DNA from: a phage
DNA length: 64,000 nucleotides
Assembly (NCBI GenBank): GCA_026066175.1
Contig: GCA_026066175.1_4721.2
Reading direction: 5' to 3' (one strand)
The position numbers were made by a program, and so were the translations under genes. The notes under the pieces were generated by a model. It ran no database searches and was not told where the DNA came from. It saw nothing but the letters and a program-made list of their open reading frames with translations. Positions 4,219 through 60,006 of this stretch are shown piece by piece. Each line of letters begins with the position of its first letter. Position 1 is the first letter of the stretch.

Positions 4219-4250
4219 CCCTCCTCCAACCCGGAAGGGAAGGAGGAGGG
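4219..4250. terminator. conserved palindromic hairpin CCCTCCTCC-AACCCGGAAGGGAA-GGAGGAGGG between convergent genes
   Basis: 9-bp GC stem, internal AA/AA, CCC/GGG, GGAA loop; an A10 run at 4199-4208 gives a U-tract for the minus-strand transcript. Confidence 0.6.
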
Positions 4251-4267
4251 TTATGACCGTTATGGTG

Positions 4268-4594
4268 TTAACTTATCGTCATGAATTCCGTAGGTGAGAA
4301 TTTCCAACCGTTTTCATTGAGAAGCGTGTTAAGTTTCGCTGCAACGATAAGCCATGCGTGCATGGCTGTCACATCGTATTGGCGATTAACACGGCGTTGG
4401 TTTTCGATATCGATTTGCTCCCGTTCGGTGATGTTTGGGTAGAGCGCGACGGCGCTGGGCTTCCCTAACGCATCACTCATTACCGCCTGACATTCACTGA
4501 TGATGTTATTGAGATGATAATTGTAAACCGTTCCACGCATAACACGATGACGGCATTCAATAATAGCGTCGTAAATAATTTCTCTTGTTGTCAT
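4268..4594 (-). CDS. hypothetical protein (108 aa)
   Basis: ORF in the minus-strand block, start 6 nt after the upstream stop. Confidence 0.55.
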   Translation of the reverse strand: MTTREIIYDAIIECRHRVMRGTVYNYHLNNIISECQAVMSDALGKPSAVALYPNITEREQIDIENQRRVNRQYDVTAMHAWLIVAAKLNTLLNENGWKFSPTEFMTIS

Positions 4595-4600
4595 GATCGA

Positions 4601-5002
4601 TTAAAACACACGTTCGTTTTTAGCACGGGCATCCATAACCAAATCGTAGATACCAGCTGTTCGTAAACATTCTTCGTAATAACGGTGCGTACCTTCCTCC
4701 GCCATCCACGATAACCCACGACTATCGGCAACAATAACCAGTTTGTTATTGTTGAATGCGCATACCACACGGTAAGTCGCATTGTTGTTTGGATCACGTG
4801 TAATCAGTTCGTAAACACCATTAACCGGTTTACTGAATTCACCGTTCAGCGGAATAAGTTCCGTTGTACCTTCAGCAAACGTTACATTGATTGATGCTGG
4901 CTCTTTAGCAATGACGGTGTATTCCACGTTGTGTTCTTTACTGGTCATGATACCGAAATAAGAACTTACTGGAGAACGTGGTACACTAAGAATATTAAAC
5001 AT
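4601..5002 (-). CDS. hypothetical protein (133 aa)
   Basis: ATG start; same operon block. Confidence 0.6.
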   Translation of the reverse strand: MFNILSVPRSPVSSYFGIMTSKEHNVEYTVIAKEPASINVTFAEGTTELIPLNGEFSKPVNGVYELITRDPNNNATYRVVCAFNNNKLVIVADSRGLSWMAEEGTHRYYEECLRTAGIYDLVMDARAKNERVF

Positions 5003-5065
5003 GAATGTTGTCCTCTTAATTGGATATAGATTGTTGGTATGTATTTGAATAAGGTTGGTTTACTT

Positions 5066-5635
5066 TTAGACGATGAGCGTCCAGGTGGTCAGTACACCGC
5101 TTGCGAATTCAAGCTTAAGACGTTTACCAATAAGCTGTTGTTGGATCATCTTTTCCGTGATCCGACGATCGTGTTGAACGGCTTTATCGAATGCCTCTTT
5201 TGCTTCGGCTTGATAAAAGTTCGTTTCTTCGTTCTCGTCGATATCTTCGAATGCATCATCGTCGATATCAGCAAGTTTTACACGGCCGTTTTCATCGGGT
5301 TGTTCGGCCGGTTCGTTGTCGTAAGGCGTGTCTTTTGTCGGTGCGACACGGTGCTGTAGTTCAACCTGGGTTAGCATCACTTCCATCTCACCGTCGATAG
5401 GGATGATGTCATCAGCACTACCGTTTTCGGTTAGCTCTCGACTTTCCAGTAACGTCGTAGTAACAGTGAACACCTCCTCGACAGGAACCTCATCATCGTC
5501 GATGGTGTTAACCGTACCGCTGGTCACTTCGGCAACAACCATCAAATCGAATGCGTGAGGGTCGCCGGGCATTTTGATCCCAGGAAGTTTGTTGAGATAC
5601 CAAGGATCAAGAATCATGATTTCGGGATTAAACAT
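5066..5635 (-). CDS. hypothetical acidic protein (189 aa)
   Basis: ATG start; D/E-rich product. Confidence 0.65.
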   Translation of the reverse strand: MFNPEIMILDPWYLNKLPGIKMPGDPHAFDLMVVAEVTSGTVNTIDDDEVPVEEVFTVTTTLLESRELTENGSADDIIPIDGEMEVMLTQVELQHRVAPTKDTPYDNEPAEQPDENGRVKLADIDDDAFEDIDENEETNFYQAEAKEAFDKAVQHDRRITEKMIQQQLIGKRLKLEFASGVLTTWTLIV

Positions 5636-5710
5636 CGTATTTACCTTTTTATGTTAGGTGGGTTGCGGATGGAAGAATCAATGCATAGTCTGATTTAAGT
5701 TTGTTAAGAC

Positions 5711-6544
5711 TTACTTAGCTTTCGGATTATACGGACTAACATGTTGTTGCATTCGTTGGATTGTTTCGTAGTACGGGTTATAATGAGTGAACATATTGTT
5801 GTATGGATGGTAGCCGTAAAGCGCATTTTGCCTTGCCGGTGAGAAACCTTTTTGAGAAGGACGATTTGAATTTACTGCGAGCACGTAGTAAACCAAATTT
5901 TGATGGTCGAATGTTCCTTCGTTTTTGAAGGTGTCAGCATAGGCGCTTACCGCAGGAGCAAGTCTATCACCATCGGTTGTAATGATCGTACCATCCGGGT
6001 AAACTTCTCGAACGATACACCATGTTCCGATGAGAACATCTTCGGGTGTCTTATTACTGTATCCGACTGTAACGGTAAGGTAAGTATCGAATCCTCCTGA
6101 GCGCTGCGGATGTCGATAAATTGGGCCAGTCGTTTCTGCTTTATCGGTTACGGTTTTTTCGTAAGGACACTTCTTGATTGCTTTGATGTAAATATCGGGA
6201 ATCTCTAATACCGCCTTATCAGGATGAATTCTAAAATGATTCTTGAGTAAGCCCAAAAGGTTGGTTGCTACCACGTCGTGAGGTAGTACCCAATAACTGG
6301 TAGGGGAGTCATCGCCGTCTCTCTTGGAGAAGATGACTGCCTTGTTATCGTCGTCTGGTAGACTGAAGAAAACGATTGACTCAATAGGCATAGCCAGCTC
6401 ACCACAACAGGGGTCAGCGGATAACACCCAATTGTATTTGTTGTCCGTTTCGTATAAATGTTCTGTTCTGTCGATACTACGATCCTTCAATTGGATGTAG
6501 CGTTCACGTTGTTTCTTGGTTAATTTACGGTAGATAGTGGTCAT
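5711..6544 (-). CDS. hypothetical protein, paralog family of 5711/6630/7431 genes (277 aa)
   Basis: N-terminus MTTIYRKL; shares VREVYPDGTIITT and PIYRHP...YLTVT segments with the 6630 gene product. Confidence 0.75.
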   Translation of the reverse strand: MTTIYRKLTKKQRERYIQLKDRSIDRTEHLYETDNKYNWVLSADPCCGELAMPIESIVFFSLPDDDNKAVIFSKRDGDDSPTSYWVLPHDVVATNLLGLLKNHFRIHPDKAVLEIPDIYIKAIKKCPYEKTVTDKAETTGPIYRHPQRSGGFDTYLTVTVGYSNKTPEDVLIGTWCIVREVYPDGTIITTDGDRLAPAVSAYADTFKNEGTFDHQNLVYYVLAVNSNRPSQKGFSPARQNALYGYHPYNNMFTHYNPYYETIQRMQQHVSPYNPKAK

Positions 6545-6588
6545 GTTAAGCTCCTTGATTACGGTAAGGATGATTTCGGTTTTGTGAT

Positions 6589-6617
6589 GATGGTAGGACC
6601 ACTTTGTTTAGGATCCT
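6589..6617 (-). terminator. imperfect hairpin GGTAGGACC...GGATCCTACC between paralog genes
   Basis: 7-9 bp stem in the intergenic gap. Confidence 0.3.
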
Positions 6618-6629
6618 ACCAGTACGGGA

Positions 6630-7403
6630 TTATTCATGATCAGTGTAGAAATGGTGAGGATAGCCGGAGTACGATCCTGCGTTACCGGCTATGGATTCTT
6701 TCTGGGAATCGACGACGAGCGCGTAGAACTGTCGGGAATTTGTTAACGTTGAGAAATAAGAGGAAAGGACTTTTTCGTTCAACGCATCGCACGGTAGACA
6801 GGTACGCCCACAGAACGTCGTAATACGGCCATCCGGATAGATCTCACGGATCATACGCCATTCACCGATATCAACCGGCGATGGCGCTGCTACACCACCT
6901 GTTATCGTTAAATAACGATCATACGTGGTATGACATTCTGGATGTACGTAAATTGGCTTATTGGCCTCAACTTCTTCAGGAGCATAGCGTCGACCGAGAA
7001 GTTCAATAACCTCCAGATAGATTGTAGGCAGATCGCAAAGAACCCCTTCCTCTTTACGTTTCTTCGTGATTCGAGGACGAACCTCATTGATAACGTAGGC
7101 GAGTTCATTCAGCGCTTCTTGCGCTGGTAGCACGAATAAACGGTCCGGTTTGTCGGACAAGTCTTCATTTACGTAAACGTAACAAACATCGTCTTTAGGC
7201 GCGTAGAAGAAGCGAGAGACCTTAAAGGTTTCCGTAGTACGATAACCGAGACGCGTTTGGTCCTGCACCAGAGAAAATATCCAGCGACGTCCTTCGTCCT
7301 GTTCAATGATATCATTGAACATCTTTGTTTGATCAGGAAGTTGATATTCTTCCTGTAATTTAGCAAGTGCTTCATTATCCAGTTTGGTGTAAACATCAGT
7401 CAT
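6630..7403 (-). CDS. hypothetical protein, paralog of 5711 gene product (257 aa)
   Basis: N-terminus MTDVYTKL; IREIYPDGRITT and PIYVHPECHTTYDRYLTITGG align to the paralog; Cys cluster CGRTCLPC. Confidence 0.75.
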   Translation of the reverse strand: MTDVYTKLDNEALAKLQEEYQLPDQTKMFNDIIEQDEGRRWIFSLVQDQTRLGYRTTETFKVSRFFYAPKDDVCYVYVNEDLSDKPDRLFVLPAQEALNELAYVINEVRPRITKKRKEEGVLCDLPTIYLEVIELLGRRYAPEEVEANKPIYVHPECHTTYDRYLTITGGVAAPSPVDIGEWRMIREIYPDGRITTFCGRTCLPCDALNEKVLSSYFSTLTNSRQFYALVVDSQKESIAGNAGSYSGYPHHFYTDHE

Positions 7404-7430
7404 GATAGTATCCTCGATTAGTAAGGTTGG

Positions 7431-7835
7431 CTAGTCTATCTTAAGCCAGATTGATGGTAAATGGAAATAGACACCGTCGTCTATTTGTTTTTGTGTTAAC
7501 GGGGTTGGAAGTTTAGTGATGATGTTGTCGATCGATTCCTCAATGTCACTTGTTAGAACGTCGATGTGGTAATAGCGAGCGATGCGTCCGTTACGTTCTA
7601 GCCAAAACAGACGAACGAAATCACTATTTTTATTAATCGCATTCATAAACACGATTTGATGAAGCAGGATCATTCTTGACGAGGGGTAATCGTCAGGACG
7701 CGGAGTCATCACCAGTTCCCAACGTTTCCGTCGCACGCCTTTTTTGAATTGACTCGTTACATTTGAACCACTTTTACCTAAGTTTATAACAAATTGCTTT
7801 AGACGATACGGTGTGTTTCTGTAAATATCGGTCAT
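7431..7835 (-). CDS. hypothetical protein, short member of the same family (134 aa)
   Basis: N-terminus MTDIYRNT; first gene after the TATATTAC repeat. Confidence 0.65.
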   Translation of the reverse strand: MTDIYRNTPYRLKQFVINLGKSGSNVTSQFKKGVRRKRWELVMTPRPDDYPSSRMILLHQIVFMNAINKNSDFVRLFWLERNGRIARYYHIDVLTSDIEESIDNIITKLPTPLTQKQIDDGVYFHLPSIWLKID

Positions 7836-7854
7836 TGATTATAGCTCCAGGTTA

Positions 7855-7886
7855 TTATCACTAAGGTAATATAGTCGTGAAATAAA
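7855..7886 (-). promoter_or_regulatory. 32-nt promoter-like repeat; minus strand reads TTTATTTCACGACTATATTACCTTAGTGATAA
   Basis: Identical 32-mer recurs at 48100-48131; contains TATATTAC; lies 20-50 nt upstream of the 7835 start. Confidence 0.45.
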
Positions 7887-7919
7887 CTGGAGTAATAGAA
7901 ATAATAAGACGGCATAAGA

Positions 7920-7950
7920 CCCTCTCCCAACCCGGAAGGGAAGGGAGAGG
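7920..7950 (-). terminator. conserved palindromic hairpin, variant CCCTCTCCC...GGGAGAGG
   Basis: Same architecture as 4219-4250 with compensatory stem changes; follows the stop of the 7956 gene. Confidence 0.55.
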
Positions 7951-7955
7951 AAGTA

Positions 7956-9323: not shown

Positions 9324-9325
9324 GT

Positions 9326-13172: not shown

Positions 13173-13224
13173 CGCAGATTCCTGTTTGAAAGATAAGATA
13201 TCACATGATGGTCGACAGCATAAA

Positions 13225-13244
13225 GCCCACCCCGAAGGGCGGGC
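13225..13244 (-). terminator. hairpin GCCCACCC-CGAA-GGGCGGGC
   Basis: 8-bp GC stem with one mismatch and tetraloop, downstream of the 1127-aa gene stop; followed on the minus strand by TTTATGCTG. Confidence 0.5.
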
Positions 13245-19128: not shown

Positions 19129-19162
19129 AAGTCAAAAGATAACCGGATATTAACGGCATATA

Positions 19163-19194
19163 CCCTCCTCCTTCCCTTCCGGGTTGGAGGAGGG
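19163..19194 (-). terminator. conserved palindromic hairpin (inverted orientation)
   Basis: CCCTCCTCCTTCCCTTCCGGGTTGGAGGAGGG, between the 19202 stop and the 19048 start. Confidence 0.55.
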
Positions 19195-21823: not shown

Positions 21824-21871
21824 GTGATGTCTCCAGTAATAATTCAAAAGATAAATCAGCGCAGCATAAGA

Positions 21872-21903
21872 CCCTCTCCCAACCCGGAAGGGAAGGGAGA
21901 GGG
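21872..21903 (-). terminator. conserved palindromic hairpin, variant CCCTCTCCC...GGGAGAGGG
   Basis: Between the 21926 stop and the 21823 start; preceded by GCATAAG as at 7913. Confidence 0.55.
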
Positions 21904-30132: not shown

Positions 30133-30152
30133 AACAAATAGCGCAAACATAA

Positions 30153-30184
30153 CCCTCCTCCAACCCGTAAGGGAAGGAGGAGGG
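30153..30184. terminator. conserved palindromic hairpin with GTAA loop between convergent genes
   Basis: CCCTCCTCCAACCCGTAAGGGAAGGAGGAGGG; flanked by ACATAA and AATATGCTGTTAT exactly as at 54842-54873. Confidence 0.6.
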
Positions 30185-30193
30185 AATATGCTG

Positions 30194-33100
30194 TTATCTT
30201 ACGTTATTGCTATTCTGCTGTTCACTGAACCAACCATAGACTTTGAGATCGGTACCGTATCTCAGTGCAAGGTATGCGTTCATCGCAGCACAGAACAACG
30301 TCGCGTAGTGCCATAAGAGCTCAACATCCATGTCATCGGGAGTCTTGGTAAAACCAGCACCTGGTACAAAGCGTGACGGTTCATGCATGAACGTGCGGTA
30401 CCAGTCGTGCTGTTGTTGTTTCGTCGTGAAATCACGGTGTGGTTCTAACGCTTCTCTTGCAAGACGACGATACTCGAGAAGATGGTGATTAGCCCGATTA
30501 TTGCGAGGGTAACTGACTTCGTAGTTAGGATCGACAGCTTGGCATAGCGCTGTTGAGTCTAATAACTCGATGGCTTTGACTAACTTATCGCTCGCGTTGG
30601 TGATGAGCGCCGATCTGTAATACTCGATCGAATTAGCAAGTTGCGAATAGAAGTCATCTAAGGCATCTGGATTTGATACCTGCAGATCAAGACCTAATGT
30701 CCACGGATAGCTGCTTTCATCATTGAGTTGCGGTACGACACCCAGGAGATGTTGGCAGATAGCTGCGTGATTATTGAACTGATCGTGGAAAATAGCTCGT
30801 GCAACTTCAATCGCATGATGATAACTCAAACGCCGTTCCTGACGTGTCGTCCTAAATGAGTTAACGGCGAGCAGTCCCGCGGTAGCCGCGCAAACATCAG
30901 TGTCGTTGACGTTGTTAAGCACATAGTTACTAAGCTGGAAAGATTCTTGCTTCAACGTTCCATTGGTCGCCGTTGCTTCGCTATTCGCTTTATCAACGAT
31001 GGTGCTTAGCGCGTTAATATAACGTTTAGCGCGAACTTCCAACCACTGTGCGATCCCAAGCACATCCACAGCCGCTTTAGCAAGGTCACGTGCGTTCACG
31101 ATTTCGTTCTTCAATGCACCCAGCCCTTTATTTTCAGGTGAGGAGGCTTGTTGTCGAATCATGCTGTTCAACATGGTAAGCAGGTTATCCAGCTCGTGTC
31201 CGCTGACCTTGTTACGTGCGTCAGTAATCGGCCCTTGCAGGAATTTACGACAACCGTCATTATACCGAATCAGTTTATCCACGTCGATGGATTCGTTCGC
31301 GGTTTCCTTGAACTGATTCTTTAATTCTTCACGGTAGTCGTGTATCTCGCTTGTAAGATTATCAACGGTGATACCATTGTGACCAAGAAGAACTTTACTG
31401 AAGTTGCCCTTCTCGAACGCCAGTGCGATGCCTTCACGAATCTTAGCCAGCTTATCCTGATCTAACTCACGACCGTTTGACAGTTCTTTCACTTCAGCGC
31501 TGATTATTGCTGCAACTGTTCCAAGGTTATCGGTAACCCCTTTGAACGTGCTTGACCAAACACTTCCCGCTTCAGCGTATTTTGCGATGGTCTGGATACC
31601 GACGCTATGTAGCGACGCTAAACGTTTCTTCGTACCTTCGGTAAGCAATGCATCTTTAGCTCGCGTAAGTTGACTGTTATTGGCTTCCGCTTGCTGGATG
31701 GCCGCTTTCGCATTCCCGTTACGCCAGCTCTTAACCAACCAATCGACTAAACGTTTCAGGATATTGATGGTATATTCCATCGTACGTCGTAACGTTTCCC
31801 ACGCGCTTTCAGCGGTATAGATCCCACCAACAGTGTACCCTTCCATCTTCAGCGCTTTGGTATCGGTTTGACGTGCCAACCATTCTACCGTCGCAGAACA
31901 AACGTTTACGAACGCCTCCAGGTAGTTGTAATAGGCCTCTGTTGCGGAGGTTTCGTTGAGCTTGGAATGCAGATAAAACTGTTCGTATAGCTCGTCGTCA
32001 TCACCGAAGGCGTCGTAGTTCCACAGTTCGGTATCGCAGCCGGTACCACAGAAGACATCCGCCGTTGTAAACTCCTTAAGTGCTTTCGTTGCGTCGTTGG
32101 TCAGGAATTTACCTGTCTCAAGTACGTCGTCAACATTAAGTCTCGGGAGTTCGTCAGTAATTGGGTTTTCCAGCATCAACGTATTGAAGAACACGCTGTA
32201 CTTGTATCCAAGCCATTTTGGATAACTGTTTTCAGATATCGTAGACGCCGGTTTGATTTTCTTGGCTTCAGCCAACGTGTCTTCTGCAACCTGATATTGG
32301 TTTTCCCCAGCTTTGATACGTCGTAATGCTTTTTCTTCCAACTGTTTGAGTTTGGTGTGCCGTGCTTGAGCTGGAGCCTCAACCAGTTTTTGTACCGACC
32401 GCATGGCGGAAATCGCTTCTTTCAATGTGGTGATCGGCATACGAACTTTACCGTCATCGAAACTCAGCGCGCGAGCAATACGTCGACTTACAACAGGTTC
32501 GGTATGGATGTTTCTTTCTACCCACGATTTGTTTGCGTAGGTTTGCGTGATTTGCTGCTGGATCTTTTCAAGATAGCCCCAGCTTTTGGATGCTTTGCCG
32601 TCCAAAAGCGGATTAGGTCCTTTCTTATCAAAAAGCTTTTTGATAGGATCAAAGAAACCTTCTTGCACGAGATCGATACGGGTGTAACCATCAGCTGCTT
32701 CGATTTCTTCTTGGGTTTTATCCCAGAAGTCGTCGCTCTTTGCAGCAACCGCTGTATCTTTAATGTCCAGGATGATCTGACCCACCGTTTGCGCAAACAG
32801 CAAGGCCGCACGTACCGATTGTGCGAACATCCGCTGATATTTGATTCGAACGCATTGCATCTGGGTTAGCAGATTCAGTTGCGCGATCCCATCCAAGGTG
32901 CTATCTTGAGCAAGTCCTTCAGCCTTAGCGATAACCTGTTTTACACGTTCAGCGACATCAACGTATTGCTGGCATACATCCCGCAGAATACGTGCTGCGA
33001 AGACCCCGGTACCGATATAGTTCAACAGGTCTTTTAATGACCATTCAGACGGACAATCGGCTGGTGCGGTAGGGAGTAAGCAACCATCACCGTCCATGAA

Positions 33101-33814: not shown

Positions 33815-33845
33815 CCTAGGGGAAGGCTGAAAACCTTCCCCTAGG
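33815..33845 (-). terminator. perfect 12-bp hairpin CCTAGGGGAAGG-CTGAAAA-CCTTCCCCTAGG
   Basis: Between the two giant genes. Confidence 0.5.
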
Positions 33846-40117: not shown

Positions 40118-40210
40118 CCTTCGTTCTGTAAAAGTTTACCGATGTATGGAAATTTCTGTGAGATACCAAAGGTACTCGATAAGTTTAGGAATTTCTGGAC
40201 GGAGGTAATT

Positions 40211-41347: not shown

Positions 41348-41349
41348 CG

Positions 41350-41830
41350 ATAACAGGTCCCCCTACTTGTAATGAGTGGGTGAACTCTCTTTAATTGCTG
41401 GAAACCTTTAATGCCCCTCCACACCACAACGCAATCCGAAAGGGTAAACGTGACGGTTGTCGAAAGACAGAAAGAAGTTGGAGGGGATCACCTAAGCTGA
41501 AATAAAAGCCGTTACTTTCTGGATATGGGAAGAGTCTAACGGTGCTAAGGGTTCTGCTAGAAATAAGGTAACCGTAGCAGCGAAGACCCTACGGACTGTC
41601 GTGACCAACTCACTGAGTTGGCGTGGTGAAACACGGACAGACTACGGGTAACGTTCAACGACCATCCGGTTGCGCGGAGTAGGAGAAATAGGATGTTCTC
41701 TGAAAAGGGAGAAGTCGGTCGAGGTGTTGTAGAAACACCGTTGCTTTGCTTCGCAAACATAAGACAGGCTAAGATATGGTCTATATTAAATGTAATACTA
41801 TGATGTATAGAATTTAATGGCTCGATATTA
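41350..41830 (+). ncRNA. candidate group I intron catalytic core (or degenerate remnant)
   Basis: About 500 nt without ORF; R-like GTTCAACGACCATCC (41653-41667) and S-like AAGATATGGTCTA (41771-41783) can form P7 (GACCA/TGGTC) with a compensatory change relative to the canonical GACTA/TAGTC; Q/P-like GCAATCCGAAAGGG at 41431-41444; several local hairpins. Confidence 0.4.
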
Positions 41831-41859: not shown

Positions 41860-42075
41860 TTGAATCTATCCAGAGCGTGCGTATTTCGTGAGCTTTCACG
41901 GATTGAGGGCGTCTCTGATTATCAATTCAGGAAGCTGGGTATTAACTTCATCACGGGCGGTAAAACGAATGCGGTTGACTTCTGCCGAATCGTTCATAAA
42001 GCCCCGTCGATGTTCGAACTGTTAGCGCATTTTGACGCGACACGTCCGAAGGAAGCGCCAAAGACCCTTGATTGA
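41860..42075 (+). CDS. small ORF (71 aa, TTG start); possibly the 3-prime exon of the upstream gene rather than an independent gene
   Basis: Open frame begins at 41818 right after the intron-like core; followed by an A11 run and a bidirectional terminator. Confidence 0.25.
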   Translation: MNLSRACVFRELSRIEGVSDYQFRKLGINFITGGKTNAVDFCRIVHKAPSMFELLAHFDATRPKEAPKTLD

Positions 42076-42100: not shown

Positions 42101-42131
42101 CCCCTCCCCTGGCGGAAGCCGGAGGGAGGGG
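42101..42131. terminator. hairpin CCCCTCCCCTGGC-GGAA-GCCGGAGGGAGGGG with flanking A11/T-rich tracts
   Basis: Variant of the conserved hairpin; A-run 42076-42086 gives a U-tract for the minus-strand cluster, TTTTATGCG on the plus side. Confidence 0.6.
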
Positions 42132-42148
42132 TGGAGGTTTTATGCGTT

Positions 42149-42687: not shown

Positions 42688-42706
42688 GAAGGTGCTGTTC
42701 ACCTTC
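42688..42706 (-). terminator. hairpin GAAGGTG-CTGTT-CACCTTC
   Basis: Directly after the stop of the 42708 gene; near-identical 24-mer also at 18872-18895. Confidence 0.4.
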
Positions 42707-42707
42707 G

Positions 42708-43139
42708 TTAGATATCATCCGGTGTATATTCGATGTTGTAAACGACGTAACGGTCTGACGCATGAACGACGAGCTCGACGGGGAAATCATAATGCTTGGT
42801 TTTGTCTCGAACATGCTGGGTAAAGAGATCCGTATAACGGATTAAGTCTTCCACGGTATACTCAGAAGGGAAGAAGACATCGATGGTTATTGACTTTTCA
42901 TAGAGGCGTATGACCAGCTTATCCAGAAGGTTGGCATATCGGTTACACGGGGCGACGTCCAGAAGACAGAAATCACCGTCTTCTGCGTCTCGTGGTATCC
43001 ACATCGTGGTATCTTGTAACGACGTTTCAAGGATCTCGAAAATGCAGTCTGCTGTAAGTCTTAGTTTATCTGTTATTTCACGGTTAGGTGAATAATGGTC
43101 ACGAATGCTTTTCACTGCTTCTTTGATGGAGAAAGTCAT
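42708..43139 (-). CDS. small hypothetical protein, tandem array member (143 aa)
   Basis: MTFSIK N-terminus, ILETSLQDTTMW, KSITIDVFFP, HYDFPVELVVH. Confidence 0.75.
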   Translation of the reverse strand: MTFSIKEAVKSIRDHYSPNREITDKLRLTADCIFEILETSLQDTTMWIPRDAEDGDFCLLDVAPCNRYANLLDKLVIRLYEKSITIDVFFPSEYTVEDLIRYTDLFTQHVRDKTKHYDFPVELVVHASDRYVVYNIEYTPDDI

Positions 43140-43153
43140 CGTTGATGCTCCTT

Positions 43154-43663
43154 TTAAAAGATATCAAGCCATGAGGATGGGGAAACCAGTTCGCTTGTGA
43201 AACATTGCGTACCGTCGGTATTTACCGCATGGGTAAGTTTATAAGCCTTAACGGCCGGTTTACTGCCGATGGTGAGGACGGTTGTCATGTCGAGCCATTC
43301 GGCACGATGGAGAAATGCCATATCAGCCACCTTCTGTAGACCATTTGCTTCAAAATCGATACGGTCGTTAAGCGGCATCAATCGGATTTCAATACGTTCT
43401 TTGAAGAGTTGAAACGTTACTGAAAACTCATGCGGTTTGGCATTAAGACATAAAGGCCCTCGATGGAAGTGTTGGTATGCTTCATTCTTGTTATGCTCGA
43501 AAACCCAGCAGTTGTGGACAAGAGAAGCGTCTTGTAACGAGGATTCCAGGTAGTCAAATACCTTGTTTATTGTTTGCTCGAGCAGAGACGCTAATGAATC
43601 TGGATATCCAGCAAATGCTGCTTCGGCGATCGATTTTACTGAAATGGTATTGTTCTGGTTCAT
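43154..43663 (-). CDS. small hypothetical protein, tandem array member (about 169 aa)
   Basis: Listed start 43690 is TTG; ATG at 43663 has an AAGGAA SD; YLESSLQDASLVHNCW matches the family. Confidence 0.7.
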   Translation of the reverse strand: MNQNNTISVKSIAEAAFAGYPDSLASLLEQTINKVFDYLESSLQDASLVHNCWVFEHNKNEAYQHFHRGPLCLNAKPHEFSVTFQLFKERIEIRLMPLNDRIDFEANGLQKVADMAFLHRAEWLDMTTVLTIGSKPAVKAYKLTHAVNTDGTQCFTSELVSPSSWLDIF

Positions 43664-44150: not shown

Positions 44151-44184
44151 GCCCTTCCCCGGCCTTGATGGCTAGGGAAGGGGC
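44151..44184 (-). terminator. imperfect GC hairpin GCCCTTCCCCGGCC-TTGAT-GGCTAGGGAAGGGGC
   Basis: Intergenic within the array. Confidence 0.4.
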
Positions 44185-44196
44185 TATGTTACGTTG

Positions 44197-44598
44197 TTAC
44201 GCTTCGCAATCAGCTGAAGATGTTGCACGCTTCTTGCCATCAAAATGCCAAAGTAGACACGCTGGGAAGAGGCAAACATCTAGAGTGCAAGGGATGTCGT
44301 ATTTTTCTTCCAGTTCGTAAAGACAATCCGCGAGCTGCTTTCGTGCATTCTCATCGTGTCGTAATGCGATATGACCTAATCGTTGTTGGTCGTTCTTTAC
44401 ATATACCTCGAAAAGTATGTGTTGTTGAAAAGCATTGATTCGTACCCCTTCAAGTATATCGGTGTCGAGCATGCGAGTAAAACTCATTGCTGTCGACGAT
44501 GTCGAGGTTTCTTGTTTAACCAGATCGATCATGGTGGGAATATACGAATGGTCGATGTTATCGACGACCGCTTTAGCGACGGAATCTGCAATGTTCAT
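44197..44598 (-). CDS. small hypothetical protein, tandem array member (133 aa)
   Basis: C-terminal KYDIPCTLDVCLF. Confidence 0.7.
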   Translation of the reverse strand: MNIADSVAKAVVDNIDHSYIPTMIDLVKQETSTSSTAMSFTRMLDTDILEGVRINAFQQHILFEVYVKNDQQRLGHIALRHDENARKQLADCLYELEEKYDIPCTLDVCLFPACLLWHFDGKKRATSSADCEA

Positions 44599-44628
44599 CT
44601 TTAATCCTTAATGTTATCGTTACCGTAT

Positions 44629-45048
44629 TTAGGTGGTTTTCGGGTTATGTTCGTATTTGACGATCGTTACTGGAATATTGCAACGGTCGAAACAGTTGAA
44701 TGAAATTGTTGTTGGGATATCGAACGCCACGACTCTGGCTTTAATATACCCGATTAAGTCGTCTTCGATAAATAAAACCTCAGGCTTATCGTTAGCATCG
44801 ACCCAAACACCAACACAGAGCTTGTCGTTATTGGTCAGTACGTTGATAGTGTATGTACTGTCGTCCATGTGAATATGCGATCTTCTACAAGAATTGAGTA
44901 GAGCAGTCGGACTATTCGCAGTCGCCCGCAACTGGTTGCTGGTCTGGATCGTGTTCAGGACATCACGTATGATGTTATCTACCAACGTAAATAGTTTCTC
45001 AGTAACGTTCTCTTTTAGAAGCTGCATCAAAGAAACAGTTGTGGTCAT
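44629..45048 (-). CDS. small hypothetical protein, tandem array member (139 aa)
   Basis: C-terminal AFDIPTTISF. Confidence 0.7.
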   Translation of the reverse strand: MTTTVSLMQLLKENVTEKLFTLVDNIIRDVLNTIQTSNQLRATANSPTALLNSCRRSHIHMDDSTYTINVLTNNDKLCVGVWVDANDKPEVLFIEDDLIGYIKARVVAFDIPTTISFNCFDRCNIPVTIVKYEHNPKTT

Positions 45049-45809
45049 TTACGATCCTCTTTAACAACAGATGTTACCCACGACGTGATGGCTGGATGAA
45101 AACAGAGGGTGAAGGTGACGGATGTTTTGTATCTCGATGCGCAGTTTCGCAGTCGTGTTTCGAAGATTCTTTTCGATTCAAGATCGTTGTTGTCGATAAC
45201 AGACAAACCGCTTACTATCCCAATAACGTTGATGCCTTTGTCTGTCTGAGTTGTGACGATGCGCCGTAACGGTTCATACTCGTAGCTGTATACGCACCCA
45301 TTCTTAGGACCGGGTGTCGAACTGGCTGCACGGGCGACGGCAACTAACATATCGACAATACGATCGATTCGAGTCCTTGCGTTGTCACTGCCGGTCTCGG
45401 TTGAGATTTCTTTCGTATCGAATATTATTACTCCGCTATCGTTAGATCCCGTGGGGAAACACATAGCTAAACGAATAGGATATTCGTACATTGAGGTTCT
45501 TTTTTGGAAAATTTCAGATAGATGTTGTTCATACGTCAACACATCAACATCATCTAGAGATGGGGGTAATACAGCCTGAATAATAACGCCGTCATCGGTT
45601 AAACCGATTCCCAGGAGACGTAGTTTATTGTCGCTTGGTACTGTTTTCTGGAGATATGCTTTACCGTTAACGATATCGGTATCCCACGTATCTTCACATA
45701 ACAAATTTTCAAACCGATCGAAAATATGGTCTACGGTATCGATGAGTTCTGTGACACGTCGTTGTTGGTTGGTTTCAATCAATTGTTGGATTCTTTCTTT
45801 GATAGACAT
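45045..45809 (-). CDS. hypothetical protein, tandem array member (254 aa)
   Basis: ATGA overlap with the downstream gene; MYEYPIRLAMCF. Confidence 0.75.
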   Translation of the reverse strand: MSIKERIQQLIETNQQRRVTELIDTVDHIFDRFENLLCEDTWDTDIVNGKAYLQKTVPSDNKLRLLGIGLTDDGVIIQAVLPPSLDDVDVLTYEQHLSEIFQKRTSMYEYPIRLAMCFPTGSNDSGVIIFDTKEISTETGSDNARTRIDRIVDMLVAVARAASSTPGPKNGCVYSYEYEPLRRIVTTQTDKGINVIGIVSGLSVIDNNDLESKRIFETRLRNCASRYKTSVTFTLCFHPAITSWVTSVVKEDRK

Positions 45810-45811
45810 GA

Positions 45812-46264
45812 TTACTCCTTAGTTCCTTCTTTGTCGGCTTTATACTCCACACAGTGGAATTCACATTCATCGATAAACCTGAGTGTTACTGTAATAGGGA
45901 AATCGCGCGGCGAAGCGGATTCCTTAAATGCGCTATCAGCAACATCAGATAACCGACGTATGGTATTTCCTCCTTTCGCCACGAACGGGAATTTAATGTT
46001 AATAAGGATACGGTGTTTGTAAATAGTAAAGACGACAGTGCTGTCGAAATGCACACCAGTTAAAGTCATTGTTGGGATGCGTTTTACGACGGAGAAATAT
46101 GTCCCGTCAATATCGCTACTTCCCACTGACCATTCATCGGAATTGCGCAGACTTCCCTTGAGGAGTTCAACGCTTTGCGTGACCACCTCAGCAACCTGTG
46201 CGACGTAGGTGTCTTTGTGCGTATCGAACAGTTCATTTACGCTGGATTTGAATGAAAAAGCCAT
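45812..46264 (-). CDS. small hypothetical protein, tandem array member (150 aa)
   Basis: MAFSFK N-terminus, ILINIKFPF, PRDFPITVTLRF. Confidence 0.75.
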   Translation of the reverse strand: MAFSFKSSVNELFDTHKDTYVAQVAEVVTQSVELLKGSLRNSDEWSVGSSDIDGTYFSVVKRIPTMTLTGVHFDSTVVFTIYKHRILINIKFPFVAKGGNTIRRLSDVADSAFKESASPRDFPITVTLRFIDECEFHCVEYKADKEGTKE

Positions 46265-47518: not shown

Positions 47519-47572
47519 CTCGAATTCCTTAAATTTCTTAGATTCAATTAATGATGGAAAGCAGAAAAAAAT

Positions 47573-47590
47573 GGTGGGGCGAACCCCACC
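47573..47590 (-). terminator. intrinsic terminator GGTGGGG-CGAA-CCCCACC followed by a U7 tract on the minus strand
   Basis: 7-bp GC stem, GNRA-type loop, A-run 47565-47571 on the plus strand. Confidence 0.65.
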
Positions 47591-47613
47591 AAAACGTCAG
47601 ACACACGCAAAAA

Positions 47614-48039
47614 TCAGTTCAATGACGTGTACAACGCATAACGGCTATAAATCTCGACCGTTGGTCCATTATGGGTTAACAGACCATCCCGGTTGTAGTA
47701 CTGGAAAAACGAATAACGTTTATCGAAGCGGTAGACAAAAGCAATGTCTTTACCAGCAAGACCGGTAATGTTTGGTTTGTTTTTGTCTAACAGCGCTTTG
47801 ACGTTTAACAACGTTGCCGCACGTTCTTTAACGTTAGGGATCAAGCCATCACAATCGATATAAACGGTGTAGCCTGTTTCAGATGTTGCGACTGTCGTAT
47901 TTTGATCGATGCGAAAGATTTTCGTGTTATGCGCACCATCTTCAAGAATCGGATTCTGCTTTTCATATTGACGAGAATCCAAATATGTTTCAACGTGATC
48001 GCGAATAATTCCGATATACCCGAATACTTCTCGTACCAT
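47614..48039 (-). CDS. small hypothetical protein, first gene downstream of the promoter-like repeat (141 aa)
   Basis: ATG start. Confidence 0.7.
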   Translation of the reverse strand: MVREVFGYIGIIRDHVETYLDSRQYEKQNPILEDGAHNTKIFRIDQNTTVATSETGYTVYIDCDGLIPNVKERAATLLNVKALLDKNKPNITGLAGKDIAFVYRFDKRYSFFQYYNRDGLLTHNGPTVEIYSRYALYTSLN

Positions 48040-48099
48040 CTTGACATCCTCTTATATTGGATTGATTACGGTTTGTTAAAAAGATAAGATACTTTACTC

Positions 48100-48131
48100 T
48101 TATCACTAAGGTAATATAGTCGTGAAATAAA
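48100..48131 (-). promoter_or_regulatory. second copy of the 32-nt TATATTAC-containing promoter-like repeat
   Basis: Identical to 7855-7886; 60-90 nt upstream of the 48039 start. Confidence 0.45.
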
Positions 48132-48160
48132 TTGTGTTATACGTGAATTAACAGCATAAG

Positions 48161-48219
48161 CCCTCCTCCCCATCCTCCCAACCCGTAAGGGAAGGGAGGA
48201 TGCAAGGGAAGGAGGAGGG
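48161..48219 (-). terminator. extended nested version of the conserved palindromic hairpin
   Basis: Outer CCCTCCTCCC/GGAGGAGGG around inner CATCCTCCCAACCCGTAAGGGAAGGGAGGATG. Confidence 0.5.
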
Positions 48220-48642: not shown

Positions 48643-48696
48643 GGAGTGCTTTTCCTATTTTTATTTTCTGCACAGGATAAATTCAACAGCATAATA

Positions 48697-48729
48697 CCCT
48701 TCCCTACCCTTATATGGGGCGGGGAAGGG
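48697..48729 (-). terminator. imperfect GC hairpin CCCTTCCCTACCC-TTATAT-GGGGCGGGGAAGGG
   Basis: Intergenic; degenerate relative of the conserved hairpin. Confidence 0.35.
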
Positions 48730-49499: not shown

Positions 49500-50801
49500 T
49501 TAACTGATATAGAGTTCGGGATCATAAGGCGCAAGCGAAACGCTGGCGTTATGCATCGCTTTCATCATTGTGTTCATGAAGACGTTGTTCACGCCGGTAA
49601 TTTCCGCCCCGATCGCATCCGGGGTTGGAGCCATCGCATTACCGCAACAGGTAGCACAGTATTCCAACGGACCTGCTTTACAACGCTGTGGGTCACGTAA
49701 CTTGATGGTTTGTCCTTCCAGTGAAGCTAACAGCTCTGCATCGATGAGCTTAAGCGCAGCACCATCGATCATGTAACGACCTACCAACAACTTGTCTTTG
49801 ATGTGGTCGCGGTTTACCGTAAACAGAATATGTTCTTGAGTACCACAATCATCCATCGTGATTTTCAGGTTCTGTGTTGCACGTTGTGATTCTTTAGCGG
49901 TTTGTCCTGCTAAAGCGGTTAACGCACCACGTGAGAACGAACCCGCACGTGCGCTGTTGTTATACTCAGCCCAGTGGTCAACACGCATACCTTCAGCCAG
50001 GCTATGTGTAATTACGTTACGTTTACCTGGGTCAACGAAGTCAGCTTCAACCCCCATCATGATGTGCGTTTTCTTTCGAGTATTACCGAAACTCTTGCCA
50101 GGGTTAATATAGAACCCTTCTGATTCGTCACCCTTAAAGGATTCTTTATCCATTTTGGTTAACGTGGACTCGAGTTTGATCAGTTCTTCAGGGGTGAATT
50201 TACCTTCTTCCTGTAGACGTGCCAGCTCTTTATCACGATAGGCGATAATGTCGTCATCAACCGTTAATGCTTTATCGCTCATCGATGGAACAATCAAACG
50301 ATTAATCGCGGTTAACGCACTGATGTTGTTGGTGAATTTCTTCACTTCGCTTGCATACAGCGGACCGATTGGACGTTCGTTAGGATCAGGAATTCCCTCT
50401 TCAGGATCGTCAGCGACACGTGGCGCAATCAACGCTTCCAACGTACCGCTGGTTAACCGTCCTGCTTGATACTCGATCTGTATCCCAAAAGCGTCATAAA
50501 GAACGTACATATTAAACAACGCTTCACCGAATGTGGTGGTGGTTGTGTTCTTAACCGATGGAAGATCGCCAGGTGCTAATTCAAGAGGCTCCCAGAAGTT
50601 AAGCAGAGGTTTTGTCGGTTCGGTTTCCCATTGATGTTCTTCACCGTCGATGGTTACGGTAACGATGTTACCTTGACGACGAAGTTTTGGTTGATATTTC
50701 TCAGCACCGCCTTCAGTAAAAGCGAAAGCATCGTTTATCCATTCAAGATAACGGTAATGTCCCTCACGCAACGCGTAAAGGAAATAGTCGCGAGGTGTCA
50801 T
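49500..50801 (-). CDS. hypothetical protein (433 aa)
   Basis: ATG start; C-terminal Cys cluster CKAGPLEYCATCCG. Confidence 0.8.
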   Translation of the reverse strand: MTPRDYFLYALREGHYRYLEWINDAFAFTEGGAEKYQPKLRRQGNIVTVTIDGEEHQWETEPTKPLLNFWEPLELAPGDLPSVKNTTTTTFGEALFNMYVLYDAFGIQIEYQAGRLTSGTLEALIAPRVADDPEEGIPDPNERPIGPLYASEVKKFTNNISALTAINRLIVPSMSDKALTVDDDIIAYRDKELARLQEEGKFTPEELIKLESTLTKMDKESFKGDESEGFYINPGKSFGNTRKKTHIMMGVEADFVDPGKRNVITHSLAEGMRVDHWAEYNNSARAGSFSRGALTALAGQTAKESQRATQNLKITMDDCGTQEHILFTVNRDHIKDKLLVGRYMIDGAALKLIDAELLASLEGQTIKLRDPQRCKAGPLEYCATCCGNAMAPTPDAIGAEITGVNNVFMNTMMKAMHNASVSLAPYDPELYIS

Positions 50802-51685: not shown

Positions 51686-51781
51686 ATCCACTCCGGTGCG
51701 GTAAATGTCTACTAGCTCTCATAATCTATTGAAGAAACTACCGGCTGACGCCAACTGAGATTAATTAGGAGTAACCATCCC

Positions 51782-53892: not shown

Positions 53893-53909
53893 TCGATCCG
53901 CGATACGGG

Positions 53910-54314: not shown

Positions 54315-54315
54315 C

Positions 54316-54825: not shown

Positions 54826-54841
54826 TGCAAAGGTAACATAA

Positions 54842-54873
54842 CCCTCCTCCAACCCGGAAGGGAAGGAGGAGGG
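54842..54873. terminator. conserved palindromic hairpin between convergent genes
   Basis: CCCTCCTCCAACCCGGAAGGGAAGGAGGAGGG with the same flanks as 30153-30184. Confidence 0.6.
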
Positions 54874-54890
54874 AATATGCTGTTATGCTA

Positions 54891-55265
54891 TTAATGTTCG
54901 TTCCAGATGGCATCTTCCGGTGGAACAATAGGATCTTTCTTTGGCATTGATGGCACTTCATGGCGATGCTTACGGAACTGCCTATCAATAACCTCACGAA
55001 GCCGGTACGCATCAACCCATGTTGACTTGTTGAAGAGTTCCAAGGTTACCGTCAATCGTGTTCTCGTCATCGAATAGCTTTTCTTTGCAATGAGATCGGG
55101 ATAATTCAGTTGAGCGAACCATGCACGGATTTGTTCTTCCGTAAACGCGATGCTGTAATAACTGAGTTTACCGTCATTGAAATCATGCGCATGGGTGTAG
55201 CGTCCAGCGTAACGCCAGACAAGATGCACATTCAGATCTATCCATGGTGGGGTGGTATCAGCCAT
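54891..55265 (-). CDS. hypothetical protein (124 aa)
   Basis: ATG start. Confidence 0.6.
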   Translation of the reverse strand: MADTTPPWIDLNVHLVWRYAGRYTHAHDFNDGKLSYYSIAFTEEQIRAWFAQLNYPDLIAKKSYSMTRTRLTVTLELFNKSTWVDAYRLREVIDRQFRKHRHEVPSMPKKDPIVPPEDAIWNEH

Positions 55266-55274
55266 GTGTTACCC

Positions 55275-55844: not shown

Positions 55845-55865
55845 GTAGCCACCACCTCCAACGTG

Positions 55866-58478: not shown

Positions 58479-58500
58479 TGAAAACCTCTGCCCTTTAGAA

Positions 58501-59142
58501 TTAGATGTACTGCTTACCGCCCACGAAGGACGTTAGCCAGTTCCCGCTGACGAGCTGTGACGCCCAACCTGGAACAGCTTTACCATTCTGGCTCATGATG
58601 TTACCACACCAACCAGGGAATCCGGGACGGATGTAATAGAAAGTTAAATTGTAGAGATGGCAATTCCATACCGCAACGTTATGTTTACCAGAAACCGCTT
58701 TAAAGACAAACGCGACAGGTAAAGGAGACGATAACAATTCGGTCACAGGGACAGCTGACCAGTTCGCATTCGCGTTCCATGGTTGCCATGTATGGCTACG
58801 CGAGTCGCAATATACGTTACCGTTGCTACCGCGTCCGCCCGCGTTCCACCAAAGCGATGGACTCATGTTCTTAAGTGATGTAAATTGCTGCGGTGGGATA
58901 TTCGGAATGATGACAGGGTTAGTACCTTGTCCATGTTTCTTTTCTTTTGCGTTCACATATCCGTTTATCGATTCAAGGTATTTAGTACCAGGATAATTGT
59001 TCTGGACTTGTGTTGCAATATCACGAACGTCGAACGTCCAGCAGATCATGGTGTTATAGTAAGCGTCGGTGTTGTCGTACCATGCGTTACCATCTTGTAA
59101 ACGTGCGCCGCTATTCGGTGTTTTATCTGTGCTTATAGCCAT
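58501..59142 (-). CDS. hypothetical protein, paralog of 59152 gene product (213 aa)
   Basis: C-terminal 40 aa nearly identical between paralogs (GFPGWCGNIMSQNGKAVPGWASQLVSGNWLTSFVGGKQY). Confidence 0.75.
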   Translation of the reverse strand: MAISTDKTPNSGARLQDGNAWYDNTDAYYNTMICWTFDVRDIATQVQNNYPGTKYLESINGYVNAKEKKHGQGTNPVIIPNIPPQQFTSLKNMSPSLWWNAGGRGSNGNVYCDSRSHTWQPWNANANWSAVPVTELLSSPLPVAFVFKAVSGKHNVAVWNCHLYNLTFYYIRPGFPGWCGNIMSQNGKAVPGWASQLVSGNWLTSFVGGKQYI

Positions 59143-59151
59143 GGTGTTGTC

Positions 59152-59919
59152 CTATACGTTGATGGTTGAGATGTCGGATGCCGGATGTGTGTTGTCATCC
59201 GGCGGTACGTACAGAAACACCCACAGATAAAACAGTAGCTTCTCTAACTTCAATTTAATTGAAGTTAGATATTGCTTACCTCCAACAAACGACGTTAGCC
59301 AGTTACCTGAAACAAGCTGCGATGCCCAGCCGGGTACAGCCTTACCGTTTTGACTCATCACGTTACCTGCCCAGCCTGGAAAACCCGGTCGGAAAATATA
59401 TACTTGAATATGCGTCAGTGCGTTATCATTACCACCGCCAACAGCAACGTTACGACTACCAGACGACGGGAAATATTCTTTTAAGAACAGGGGATCGGTT
59501 GCTAATAAAGAAGCAGGCCAAGGATTTGCAGATGCATCAACGTCGAATTCGGTCCAACTCCAATGACGGTTTGTGTCGAACCATGTTGACGTACCACCAC
59601 CTCTCACAGCAAGATTGCGCGCATCACGGACATTATAGATCGATTCGATGTTACGCCATCCGCCTTTCGCGGCGTTTGCTGCATAGCAAATCGCATTACC
59701 ACCATTCTTCTTCTCGAAAACGGTTCGTTTGATATGAACACGGTCGATAAACGCCTCACCGTATTTGTTGACGAGTGTTTGTGCGATATCACGAAGATCG
59801 TGCATATGGAAAGCGATGTCTTCGTTATGAAACCATGTTGTTGCATTCCAAACAGTACCGTTTGGTTCAGCACACATCGATCGGATATTGTTGCGTTGAT
59901 TAATCGCGATAAAACCCAT
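59152..59919 (-). CDS. hypothetical protein, paralog of 58501 gene product (about 256 aa)
   Basis: ATG at 59919 (GAGGT SD) preferred; alternative ATG at 59970 abuts the hairpin. Confidence 0.7.
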   Translation of the reverse strand: MGFIAINQRNNIRSMCAEPNGTVWNATTWFHNEDIAFHMHDLRDIAQTLVNKYGEAFIDRVHIKRTVFEKKNGGNAICYAANAAKGGWRNIESIYNVRDARNLAVRGGGTSTWFDTNRHWSWTEFDVDASANPWPASLLATDPLFLKEYFPSSGSRNVAVGGGNDNALTHIQVYIFRPGFPGWAGNVMSQNGKAVPGWASQLVSGNWLTSFVGGKQYLTSIKLKLEKLLFYLWVFLYVPPDDNTHPASDISTINV

Positions 59920-59974
59920 TGTATACCTCGTTCCTATTCTCAAAAAGGAAATTTCATACGATGACGCCATAGCG

Positions 59975-60006
59975 GCCCCTCCCGACCCGTAAGGGAAGGG
60001 AGGGGC
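59975..60006 (-). terminator. conserved palindromic hairpin, variant GCCCCTCCC-GACCCGTAAGGGAA-GGGAGGGGC
   Basis: Same architecture with GTAA loop. Confidence 0.5.

Follow-up and report, generated by a model that had tools for sequence, protein, structure and literature searches.

Nested palindromic hairpins at gene ends of a Goslar-like phage: likely transcription terminators of the chimallivirus type

A 64 000 nt stretch of phage DNA (GenBank assembly GCA_026066175.1, contig GCA_026066175.1_4721.2; the whole of it is referred to here as the window) carries GC-rich palindromic hairpins of closely similar design at 12 places between positions 4219 and 60006, and the question that they raise is what function such a dispersed family serves. 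The hairpins are likely to be intrinsic-type (factor-independent) transcription terminators recognized by the multisubunit RNA polymerases (RNAPs) that the phage itself encodes, given their resemblance to terminators mapped in related phages. The anatomy of the hairpins, their statistics and distribution, the covariation in their stems, the strand-specific wobble pairs and the match to a published consensus were obtained in this analysis; the step from sequence to function, and likewise the responding polymerase, we infer from the homology of motif, placement and polymerase.

At the nucleotide level the window shares 87 % identity with Escherichia phage vB_EcoM_Goslar, which was the sole match of a 7 kb probe, and Goslar positions 43,890-103,498 are the collinear counterpart of its entire length. 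Goslar is a member of the genus Goslarvirus in the Chimalliviridae and is a nucleus-forming jumbo phage of Escherichia coli. Transcription in this family relies on two split multisubunit RNAPs of phage origin, a virion and a non-virion enzyme, and the open reading frame (ORF) at 49500-50801 encodes a fragment of a phage RNAP beta subunit (PHROG 'RNA polymerase beta subunit', E-value 3e-106); this ORF and the identity and collinearity with Goslar together place the hairpins in a chimallivirus with such enzymes. Most of the window genes lie on the minus strand, and gaps of at least 20 nt between genes account for 4.4 % of the window.

All 12 hairpins listed in the initial annotation are present at the positions given there (Table 1), and an unbiased census of inverted repeats recovers the same family with no members in coding regions. 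Every one of the 12 is intergenic, as had been proposed, although the gaps available to them are so small a part of the sequence; an ORF that overlaps the 59975 hairpin is spurious, the product of an ORF call extended to a GTG. Eight copies have a canonical form of 32 nt with a nested structure, consisting of a 9 bp stem, a 2x2 internal loop of A/A or U/U, a 3 bp CCC/GGG stem and a tetraloop, and the exact 32-mer CCCTCCTCCAACCCGKAAGGGAAGGAGGAGGG occurs four times in the window against an expectation of zero. The arms at all 12 sites are pyrimidine-rich on the 5′ side (CCYCCCC-like) and purine-rich on the 3′ side (GGGRRGG-like), and they look alike on either strand because the stem is a palindrome. 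The predicted structures are very stable, with folding energies of -23 to -43 kcal/mol and z-scores of -4 to -6.7 on either strand, the exception being the minus strand at 42101 (z -2.0). A search with the Rfam covariance models across the entire window gave no matches at gathering thresholds. One detail of the first description does not hold, in that the copies at 30153 and 54842 had been said to share identical 50 nt flanks; outside the hairpin the two agree over 6 nt to the left and over 13 nt to the right, which makes a shared block of about 51 nt including the hairpin, with one difference in the loop.

Compensatory variation in the stems, the other feature that had been reported, is well supported. 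An alignment of 16 distinct canonical copies, drawn from the window, Goslar and one further sister genome (the sister genomes used here are Goslar and two other Goslar-like genomes from IMG/VR), has 98.4 % of its cells paired, and six of the 12 pairs change on both sides; the covariation score was reached by none of 500 shuffles, and slid registers came nowhere near it. The inner CCC/GGG stem is invariant among copies and so is uninformative in this respect. A few strand-specific wobble pairs bear on the level at which the structure is selected. The 13225 hairpin has a G.U pair on the sense strand only (-19.0 kcal/mol sense versus -15.1 kcal/mol antisense), the 7920 hairpin gains a ninth pair (U.G) on the sense strand only, and the Goslar hairpin at 43308 folds at -29.7 kcal/mol in the sense and -18.5 kcal/mol in the antisense direction. 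These sense-only G.U pairs point to selection at the RNA level and so back the earlier suggestion to that effect.

The placement of the hairpins relative to genes is strict. Within the window a family hairpin is found at all four convergent junctions, at none of the four divergent junctions and at eight tandem junctions, where the hairpins divide long minus-strand gene arrays. The same holds in Goslar, where a hand count from the Goslar annotation and the hairpin censuses gives family hairpins at about 17-18 of 19 convergent junctions versus 1-2 of about 20 divergent ones. The hairpins thus sit at gene ends and, as first described, often between convergent genes; they would mark the ends of transcription units and serve both directions between convergent genes. 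This distribution is the one expected for terminators and the opposite of that expected for promoters.

A second conserved element follows the stem. The word TATG, which had been noted near most of the hairpins, is strongly enriched within 7 nt of the stem relative to a background of 1.8 %, and it belongs to a longer box with the consensus TTATG-YYGT(TA). In the window and Goslar combined, 15 of 19 tandem sites have TATG within this distance on the sense flank and five of 19 on the antisense flank, and 10 of the 18 convergent sites have it on each side. In the window alone, seven of eight tandem sites have it on the sense side and each of the four convergent sites has it on the plus side, and all eight intergenic occurrences of TATGYYG directly follow a family hairpin. 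The side on which the box lies always tracks the direction of transcription, whereas the orientation of the hairpin interior does not.

Hairpin and box together correspond to a terminator that has been mapped in other chimalliviruses. For Pseudomonas phage phiKZ, 133 termination sites were identified by ONT (Oxford Nanopore Technologies)-cappable-seq, and 61 terminators share the motif BCCYCCCCHWWDGGGRRGGBYTTATKYYGT, in which TTAT comes after a hairpin (Putzeys et al. 2024, microLife; PMC10914365); six of the phiKZ terminators are bidirectional and lie between convergent genes (PMC10914365). The 3′ half of this consensus, GGGRRGGBYTTATKYYGT, matches six sites in the window with at most two mismatches, against 0.18 expected, and each of these hits is in the sense orientation and overlaps a hairpin of the family; the best match to the full 30-mer is at 13215-13244. 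The same architecture can be seen in the phiKZ DNA, including the arrangement CATAA-hairpin-TTATG between convergent genes. Table S4 of the phiKZ study (bioRxiv version) gives the sequence from -60 to +40 around each transcription termination site (TTS); with the TTS taken as position 60 and offsets counted by hand, the site lies, relative to the G of TTATG, at about -3 to +4 nt in the 12 motif-bearing entries considered, and therefore, as far as these entries go, the box is where phiKZ transcripts end. Several family hairpins are labelled 'putative transcriptional terminator' in the Goslar GenBank record, among them the orthologues of 13225 and 54842.

The likeness to the phiKZ terminators extends to the C/T-rich 5′ arm and G/A-rich 3′ arm, the TTATKYYGT box 1-3 nt past the stem, the intergenic position at operon ends, the bidirectional use at convergent genes with CATAA...TTATG symmetry, and the virus family with its homologous RNAPs. 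The phiKZ hairpins are simple, however, with a 7-8 bp stem and a 4 nt loop, unlike the canonical copies of the window; the fifth base of the box is almost always G in the window and Goslar, whereas phiKZ also permits T. Phage 201phi2-1 has the same motif (n=59), at which RNA 3′ ends have likewise been mapped, with composite elongated hairpins and 15 bidirectional terminators (PMC11512511). Its hairpins are lengthened by a second motif in a manner comparable to the 59 nt hairpin-in-hairpin at 48161-48219, although the sequences of the extensions differ from those of its composite A/B hairpins. Classical Rho-independent terminators are similar in that a GC-rich hairpin sits at the ends of genes, bidirectional sites have symmetric A-rich/U-rich surroundings and the element acts during transcription, but here a short, sequence-specific UUAUG-YYGU box is conserved in place of the U run, which suggests recognition by the phage polymerases. 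A clean U-tract had been reported for only some of the copies, and this is so: most stems are followed by no more than UUAU, and T-runs 11-16 nt from the stem occur only on the minus side of 4219 and 42101. The hairpins are therefore the Goslar-lineage version of the published chimallivirus terminator, whose consensus had gone unrecognized in the initial annotation, and not a new class of element; what is new in the Goslar lineage is the nested elaboration of the known terminator hairpin.

If the hairpins act as we propose, the C/U-rich 5′ arm and the G/A-rich 3′ arm would pair in the nascent RNA to give a hairpin of high stability, and the box (T)TATG-YYGT(TA), 1-3 nt beyond it, would stand in for the U-tract, with the transcript ending within the box. 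Between convergent genes a single element would halt transcription arriving from either side, because the stem is a palindrome and the box is present on both strands, whereas between tandem genes it would mark the end of an operon and keep its box on the sense side. Several points weigh against this interpretation. We found no RNA 3′-end data for the window phage or for Goslar in the literature searched. Most copies are without a U-tract and so fall outside the textbook definition of an intrinsic terminator, and the box itself is absent at the tandem site 44151 and from the minus flanks of the convergent sites 4219 and 42101. Covariation by itself cannot tell RNA hairpins from DNA palindromes, and almost all of the pairs are Watson-Crick. 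The conserved interior AA-CCC-NNNA-GGG-AA and its bias towards one genome strand (20 of 23 copies) are unexplained by termination alone.

Nor does termination alone explain the conservation of bases past the mapped 3′ end (the G and YYGT), which suggests that the polymerase reads them in a sequence-specific way. The box TTATG-YYGTTA is conserved between the chimalliviruses of Pseudomonas and those of E. coli, whose proteins are only about 30 % identical. It includes the word TATG that is bound by the beta-lobe pocket of phiKZ gp123, and it also fits the G(-10)/Y(-1)/G(+1) pattern of elemental pauses by bacterial RNAP. The box reader may be either a beta-lobe pocket of the kind that binds non-template TATG at late promoters, or a pause of the G(-10)/Y(-1)/G(+1) type. 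It may be that the phage RNAP reads the box by its sequence and not as a weak U-rich hybrid, and, further, that gene conversion keeps the dispersed terminators uniform and the strand-biased, conserved interior has a second role at the DNA level; this fuller reading can be offered only tentatively and is less likely than not.

The presence of TATG raises the possibility that the hairpins are terminator-promoter cassettes, in which an operon finishes at the hairpin and the neighbouring TATG serves the next operon as a late promoter of the non-virion RNAP (nvRNAP), with G as +1. This pairing was considered in the initial annotation, and the phiKZ nvRNAP indeed requires only TATG, with the G as start site (Yakunina 2015; IUCrJ 2026). 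In tandem arrangements 18-116 nt separate the box from the gene downstream of it, and two late phiKZ transcription start sites (TSSs) in the published table, P049 and P075, use a second TATG that follows the terminator box by 4-10 nt. Unlike the late promoter word, however, TATG in the window follows the direction of incoming transcription, and at convergent junctions it occurs on both strands where there is no gene downstream. Family hairpins are absent from all of the divergent, promoter-bearing junctions of the window, the model phiKZ late promoter P119L has no upstream hairpin, and among entries P001-P126 of phiKZ Table S3 no late TSS falls at a terminator's own TTATG, whereas the mapped 3′ ends do. 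Where a window hairpin does have a promoter-like motif after it, this is an early-type TATATTAC distinct from the box and some 45 nt further downstream. We therefore regard the cassette as unlikely, and to the extent of these phiKZ entries TATG beside the hairpins was rejected as a late promoter in general; a hairpin-dependent promoter of the kind found in phage N4 was rejected on the same grounds and on that of the hairpin-less P119L. Of the 14 TATG-contacting residues of phiKZ gp123, seven are identical in the Goslar homologue gp039, whose overall identity is 29 %; this counts in favour of the cassette and is suggestive of a conserved pocket, but a two-sequence alignment at this level of identity was judged too weak to be used.

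Candidate promoters of the early and the late type can be discerned in the window. A repeated block of about 75 nt lies downstream of hairpins 7920 and 48161 (7840-7915 and 48085-48160, minus strand) and contains TTTATTTCACGACTATATTACCTTAGTGATAA; the word CTATATTAC is at 7866-7874 and 48111-48119, about 45 nt downstream of the box. The TATATTAC core in this block matches that of phiKZ early (virion RNAP) promoters such as P001 and P017 of Table S3, and in the entries of that table phiKZ early promoters with this core lie about 30 nt after the terminator box. The blocks are likely to be early promoters for the genes at 7431-7835 and 47614-48039, as judged from the motif. The block borders a three-gene insertion that is specific to the window. 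Words of the form TATG without a hairpin, GTTATGCGG and ACGCTATGGTC, are found at 1777-1922 (minus strand), 50-140 nt upstream of the major capsid gene (start about 1772), and by analogy with the hairpin-less phiKZ P119L they are candidate late promoters.

The similarity among dispersed copies might also suggest that the hairpins are selfish or mobile palindromic repeats without a primary role in transcription, comparable to REP (repetitive extragenic palindrome) or MITE (miniature inverted-repeat transposable element) sequences or to PeSL cassettes. The copies do evolve in concert. A GGAA loop is present in five of the eight canonical window copies (4219, 7920, 19163, 21872 and 54842) and in none of 42 in the three sister genomes, where the loops are mostly GTAA; orthologous sites differ by inverted interiors and by the exchange of an entire stem variant, and at 54842 the different, fully compensated stem of the Goslar orthologue matches other copies in Goslar. 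Judged from these sequences, this points to gene conversion among dispersed terminators, and concerted evolution of this kind does not demonstrate mobility. The exact 32-mer is confined to Goslar-like genomes, which also speaks for this explanation. We note, however, that the motif is conserved as far as phiKZ, with proteins only about 30 % identical, that the hairpins occupy all convergent junctions and no divergent ones, and that their directional box tracks the sense strand; neither copies in the host or in many genomes nor a placement independent of gene ends, which would characterize REP- or MITE-like repeats, was seen. The broader hairpin pattern gave a single match in 596 Gb of bacterial and archaeal genomes, and a host-derived REP-like repeat was rejected for this reason.

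The four insertions that the window has relative to Goslar (5695-7854, 42693-43650, 44236-45821 and 59195-59915) bear on the same point, since three of the four end 50-65 nt from a hairpin. This proximity was rejected as evidence for mobility because it is expected when indels are confined to the small intergenic fraction of the window, much of it hairpin-bearing, and no target-site duplications or transposase genes were noticed, although no systematic search for them was made. The proteins encoded by these four gene cassettes and by a further cassette inserted relative to Goslar, at 30565-32646, are all of unknown function. Among known dispersed intergenic palindromes that are repeated within a genome are the PeSL (promoter-early stem-loop) cassettes of T4-type phages and the REP and BIME (bacterial interspersed mosaic element) sequences of E. 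coli. The copies at 7920 and 48161 resemble PeSL in preceding an early-promoter-like motif within a repeated block that borders variable gene cassettes. Unlike PeSL, REP and BIME, the family has a terminator-type box and placement, no counterpart in host genomes and no sign of mobility beyond the homogenization of its copies. A mobile element without a primary role in transcription thus seems very unlikely.

A further alternative is that the hairpins serve chiefly to keep 3′ exonucleases off the mRNAs, or as cleavage sites of an RNase, and are not places where the polymerase stops. Very stable hairpins at operon 3′ ends would suit such a role, and 3′ ends from short-read and ONT sequencing alone cannot distinguish termination from processing back to a hairpin. 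The box, however, is conserved downstream of the stem and would be missing from trimmed RNA, and selection on it therefore implies an action during transcription. Eight selected 201phi2-1 terminators, which represent the motif classes of that phage, were assayed for activity in a terminator trap with a host-RNAP reporter (PMC11512511). Stabilization of the RNA is compatible with the terminator interpretation as a secondary benefit, and as the main function it is most improbable.

The GNRA loops that gave the family its first description are a matter of strand. On the plus strand seven of the eight canonical window copies do have the interior AA-CCC-GNRA-GGG-AA, and to this extent the description stands. 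At four of the five canonical tandem minus-strand sites, however, the mRNA carries UU-CCC-UNNC-GGG-UU (with UUCC or UUAC loops and U.U mismatches), because that interior is on the plus strand and most genes lie on the minus strand. At 19163 and 59975 the interior is flipped between the window and the Goslar orthologues while the sense-side box is kept, and the loops in the sister genomes include AACA, ATCA, AGCA and GTCA, with GNRA in 25 of 42 by our own tally. A GNRA loop is thus neither consistently on the transcribed strand nor conserved among copies and orthologues, and what appears as GNRA and A/A is for the most part a terminator stem interrupted by U.U, seen from its antisense strand. 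A similar design, CCCCCC-AA-CCC-NNNA-GGG-AA-GGGGGG, is present once each at a conserved locus in 46 unrelated viral contigs (IMG/VR, mostly from marine metagenomes; loci L016-L086); the terminated gene reads the UU strand in every one, the sequence downstream on that strand is T-rich in the flanks inspected, and the proteins neighbouring the hairpin in these contigs gave no PHROG match.

That the hairpins are GNRA-tetraloop modules engaging a tetraloop receptor or a protein, or translational switches that sequester a Shine-Dalgarno (SD) sequence, can for practical purposes be dismissed, since the GGAA/GUAA loops and A/A internal loops that recommend the first are a plus-strand property while the sense RNA at most tandem sites, the orthologue flips and the non-GNRA loops contradict it (a GNRA/A-minor module was rejected on these points), no Rfam family matches, the unrelated clade always transcribes the UU strand, and the resemblance of GGAGGAGGG-UU-AUG to a ribosome-binding site and start codon, with AUG 6 nt after the 3′ arm GGAGG, leads only to unconserved ORFs of 3-20 codons (for which SD-plus-AUG mini-ORFs were rejected) upstream of genes with an SD of their own.

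The individual sites are collected in Table 1. The hairpin at 30153, with a box on either side, reads as a bidirectional terminator. A further hairpin, GGUGGGG-UUCG-CCCCACC followed by U7 at 47572-47591 (minus strand), is a classical intrinsic terminator outside the polypyrimidine/polypurine family, and its orthologue at Goslar 86155-86172 is annotated as a putative terminator; two styles of terminator therefore coexist in this phage. A perfect 12 bp palindrome, CCTAGGGGAAGG-N7-CCTTCCCCTAGG, at 33815-33845 (minus strand) lies 13 nt past the stop codon of the gp065 homologue and just ahead of the SD and ATG of the gp064 homologue; its purine-rich arm comes first, opposite in polarity to the hairpin family, and no TTATG box accompanies it. 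The gp064 homologue is itself strongly divergent and enlarged, with 1220 aa as called versus 930 aa in Goslar.

The region ahead of the 42101 hairpin has a different peculiarity. A match to the group I intron family RF00028 at 41278-41801 on the plus strand (43.2 bits against a gathering score of 50; E-value 4e-9 in a 2.3 kb search) starts inside the 3′ end of the plus-strand ORF 40142-41347 and continues downstream of it. This ORF is a homologue of Goslar gp069, a NUMOD1/HNH endonuclease, and is preceded by a DNA polymerase fragment; the ORFs flanking the intron and endonuclease stretch are at 38618-40117 and 41860-42075. From this arrangement an intron-encoded homing endonuclease appears to interrupt the DNA polymerase gene, and the 42101 hairpin would then terminate its second exon.

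Table 1. Hairpin sites of the family in the window, with their boxes and Goslar orthologues (SD, Shine-Dalgarno sequence)
Site	Form	Region	Strand and gene context	Sense RNA interior	Box or flank	Goslar orthologue
4219	Canonical 32 nt nested hairpin, 4219-4250	4219..4260	Convergent; DnaB-like helicase gene (+) / gp044 homologue (-)		TTATGACCGT at 4251-4260, plus; minus flank without TATG, T10 run 11 nt downstream	48107-48138
7920	Canonical	7909..7951	Minus, tandem genes	UU/UUCC	TCTTATGCCGT at 7919-7909	49776-49807
13225	Simple hairpin, GCCCGCCC-UUCG-GGGUGGGC	13215..13244	Minus		TTTATGCTGT	55080-55101; annotated 'putative transcriptional terminator'
19163	Canonical, opposite interior orientation	19153..19194	Minus	AA/GGAA	TATATGCCGT at 19162-19153	61009-61040; interior flipped relative to window copy
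21872	Canonical, stem variant CCCTCTCCC/GGGAGAGGG	21861..21903	Minus, tandem genes; SD and ATG of next gene ~45 nt downstream	UU/UUCC	TCTTATGCTGC at 21871-21861, minus	
30153	Canonical	30144..30197	Convergent; gp063 homologue (+) / gp064 homologue (-)		AATATGCTGTTAT at 30185-30197, plus; TTATGTTTG at 30152-30144, minus	
42101	Looser relative, CCCCTCCCCTGGC-GGAA-GCCGGAGGGAGGGG; folds far better on plus	42101..42146	Convergent; presumed DNA-polymerase exon 2 (+) / gp070 homologue (-)		TTTTATGCG 7-9 nt downstream on plus; T-run on minus	
44151	Looser relative, GCCCCTTCCC...GGGAAGGGGC	44151..44184	Minus, tandem genes		Sense flank TGTATACC, without TATG	Carries CTATATGTTG
48161	Composite 59 nt hairpin, -43 kcal/mol; canonical inner hairpin 48171-48202 inside 10 bp polypyrimidine/polypurine outer stem	48151..48219	Minus		CTTATGCTGT at 48160-48151, minus	Without inner core; similar nested copy at Goslar 174250-174313
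48697	Looser relative, CCCTTCCC...GGGAAGGG, with inner stem	48686..48729	Minus, tandem genes		TATTATGCTGT at 48696-48686	
54842	Canonical	54833..54886	Convergent; macro-domain gene homologue (+) / gp084 homologue (-)		AATATGCTGTTAT, plus; TTATGTTAC, minus	93445-93476; doubly compensated stem CCCTCTCCC/GGGAGAGGG, AGCA loop; annotated putative terminator
59975	Canonical, stem variant GCCCCTCCC/GGGAGGGGC	59964..60006	Minus; adjoins window-specific insertion 59195-59915	UU/UUAC	CGCTATGGCGT at 59974-59964	97885-97914; interior flipped, stem different

The terminator interpretation would extend the motif of phiKZ and 201phi2-1 to a genus that infects E. coli, and it argues for a reading of that motif by the conserved phage RNAPs. 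The signature of hairpin plus box offers a cheap marker of operon ends for Goslar-like and other nucleus-forming jumbo phages without a transcriptome, and the elements could serve as compact bidirectional terminators for engineering. The overlap between the box and the late promoter word, the concerted evolution of the copies and the flipping of their interiors are small points that can be tested in a tractable E. coli system. Should either of the candidate box readers prove to be correct, the same four-base word would mark start and stop for a non-canonical RNAP, and chimallivirus terminators would be devices composed of a hairpin and a pause box.

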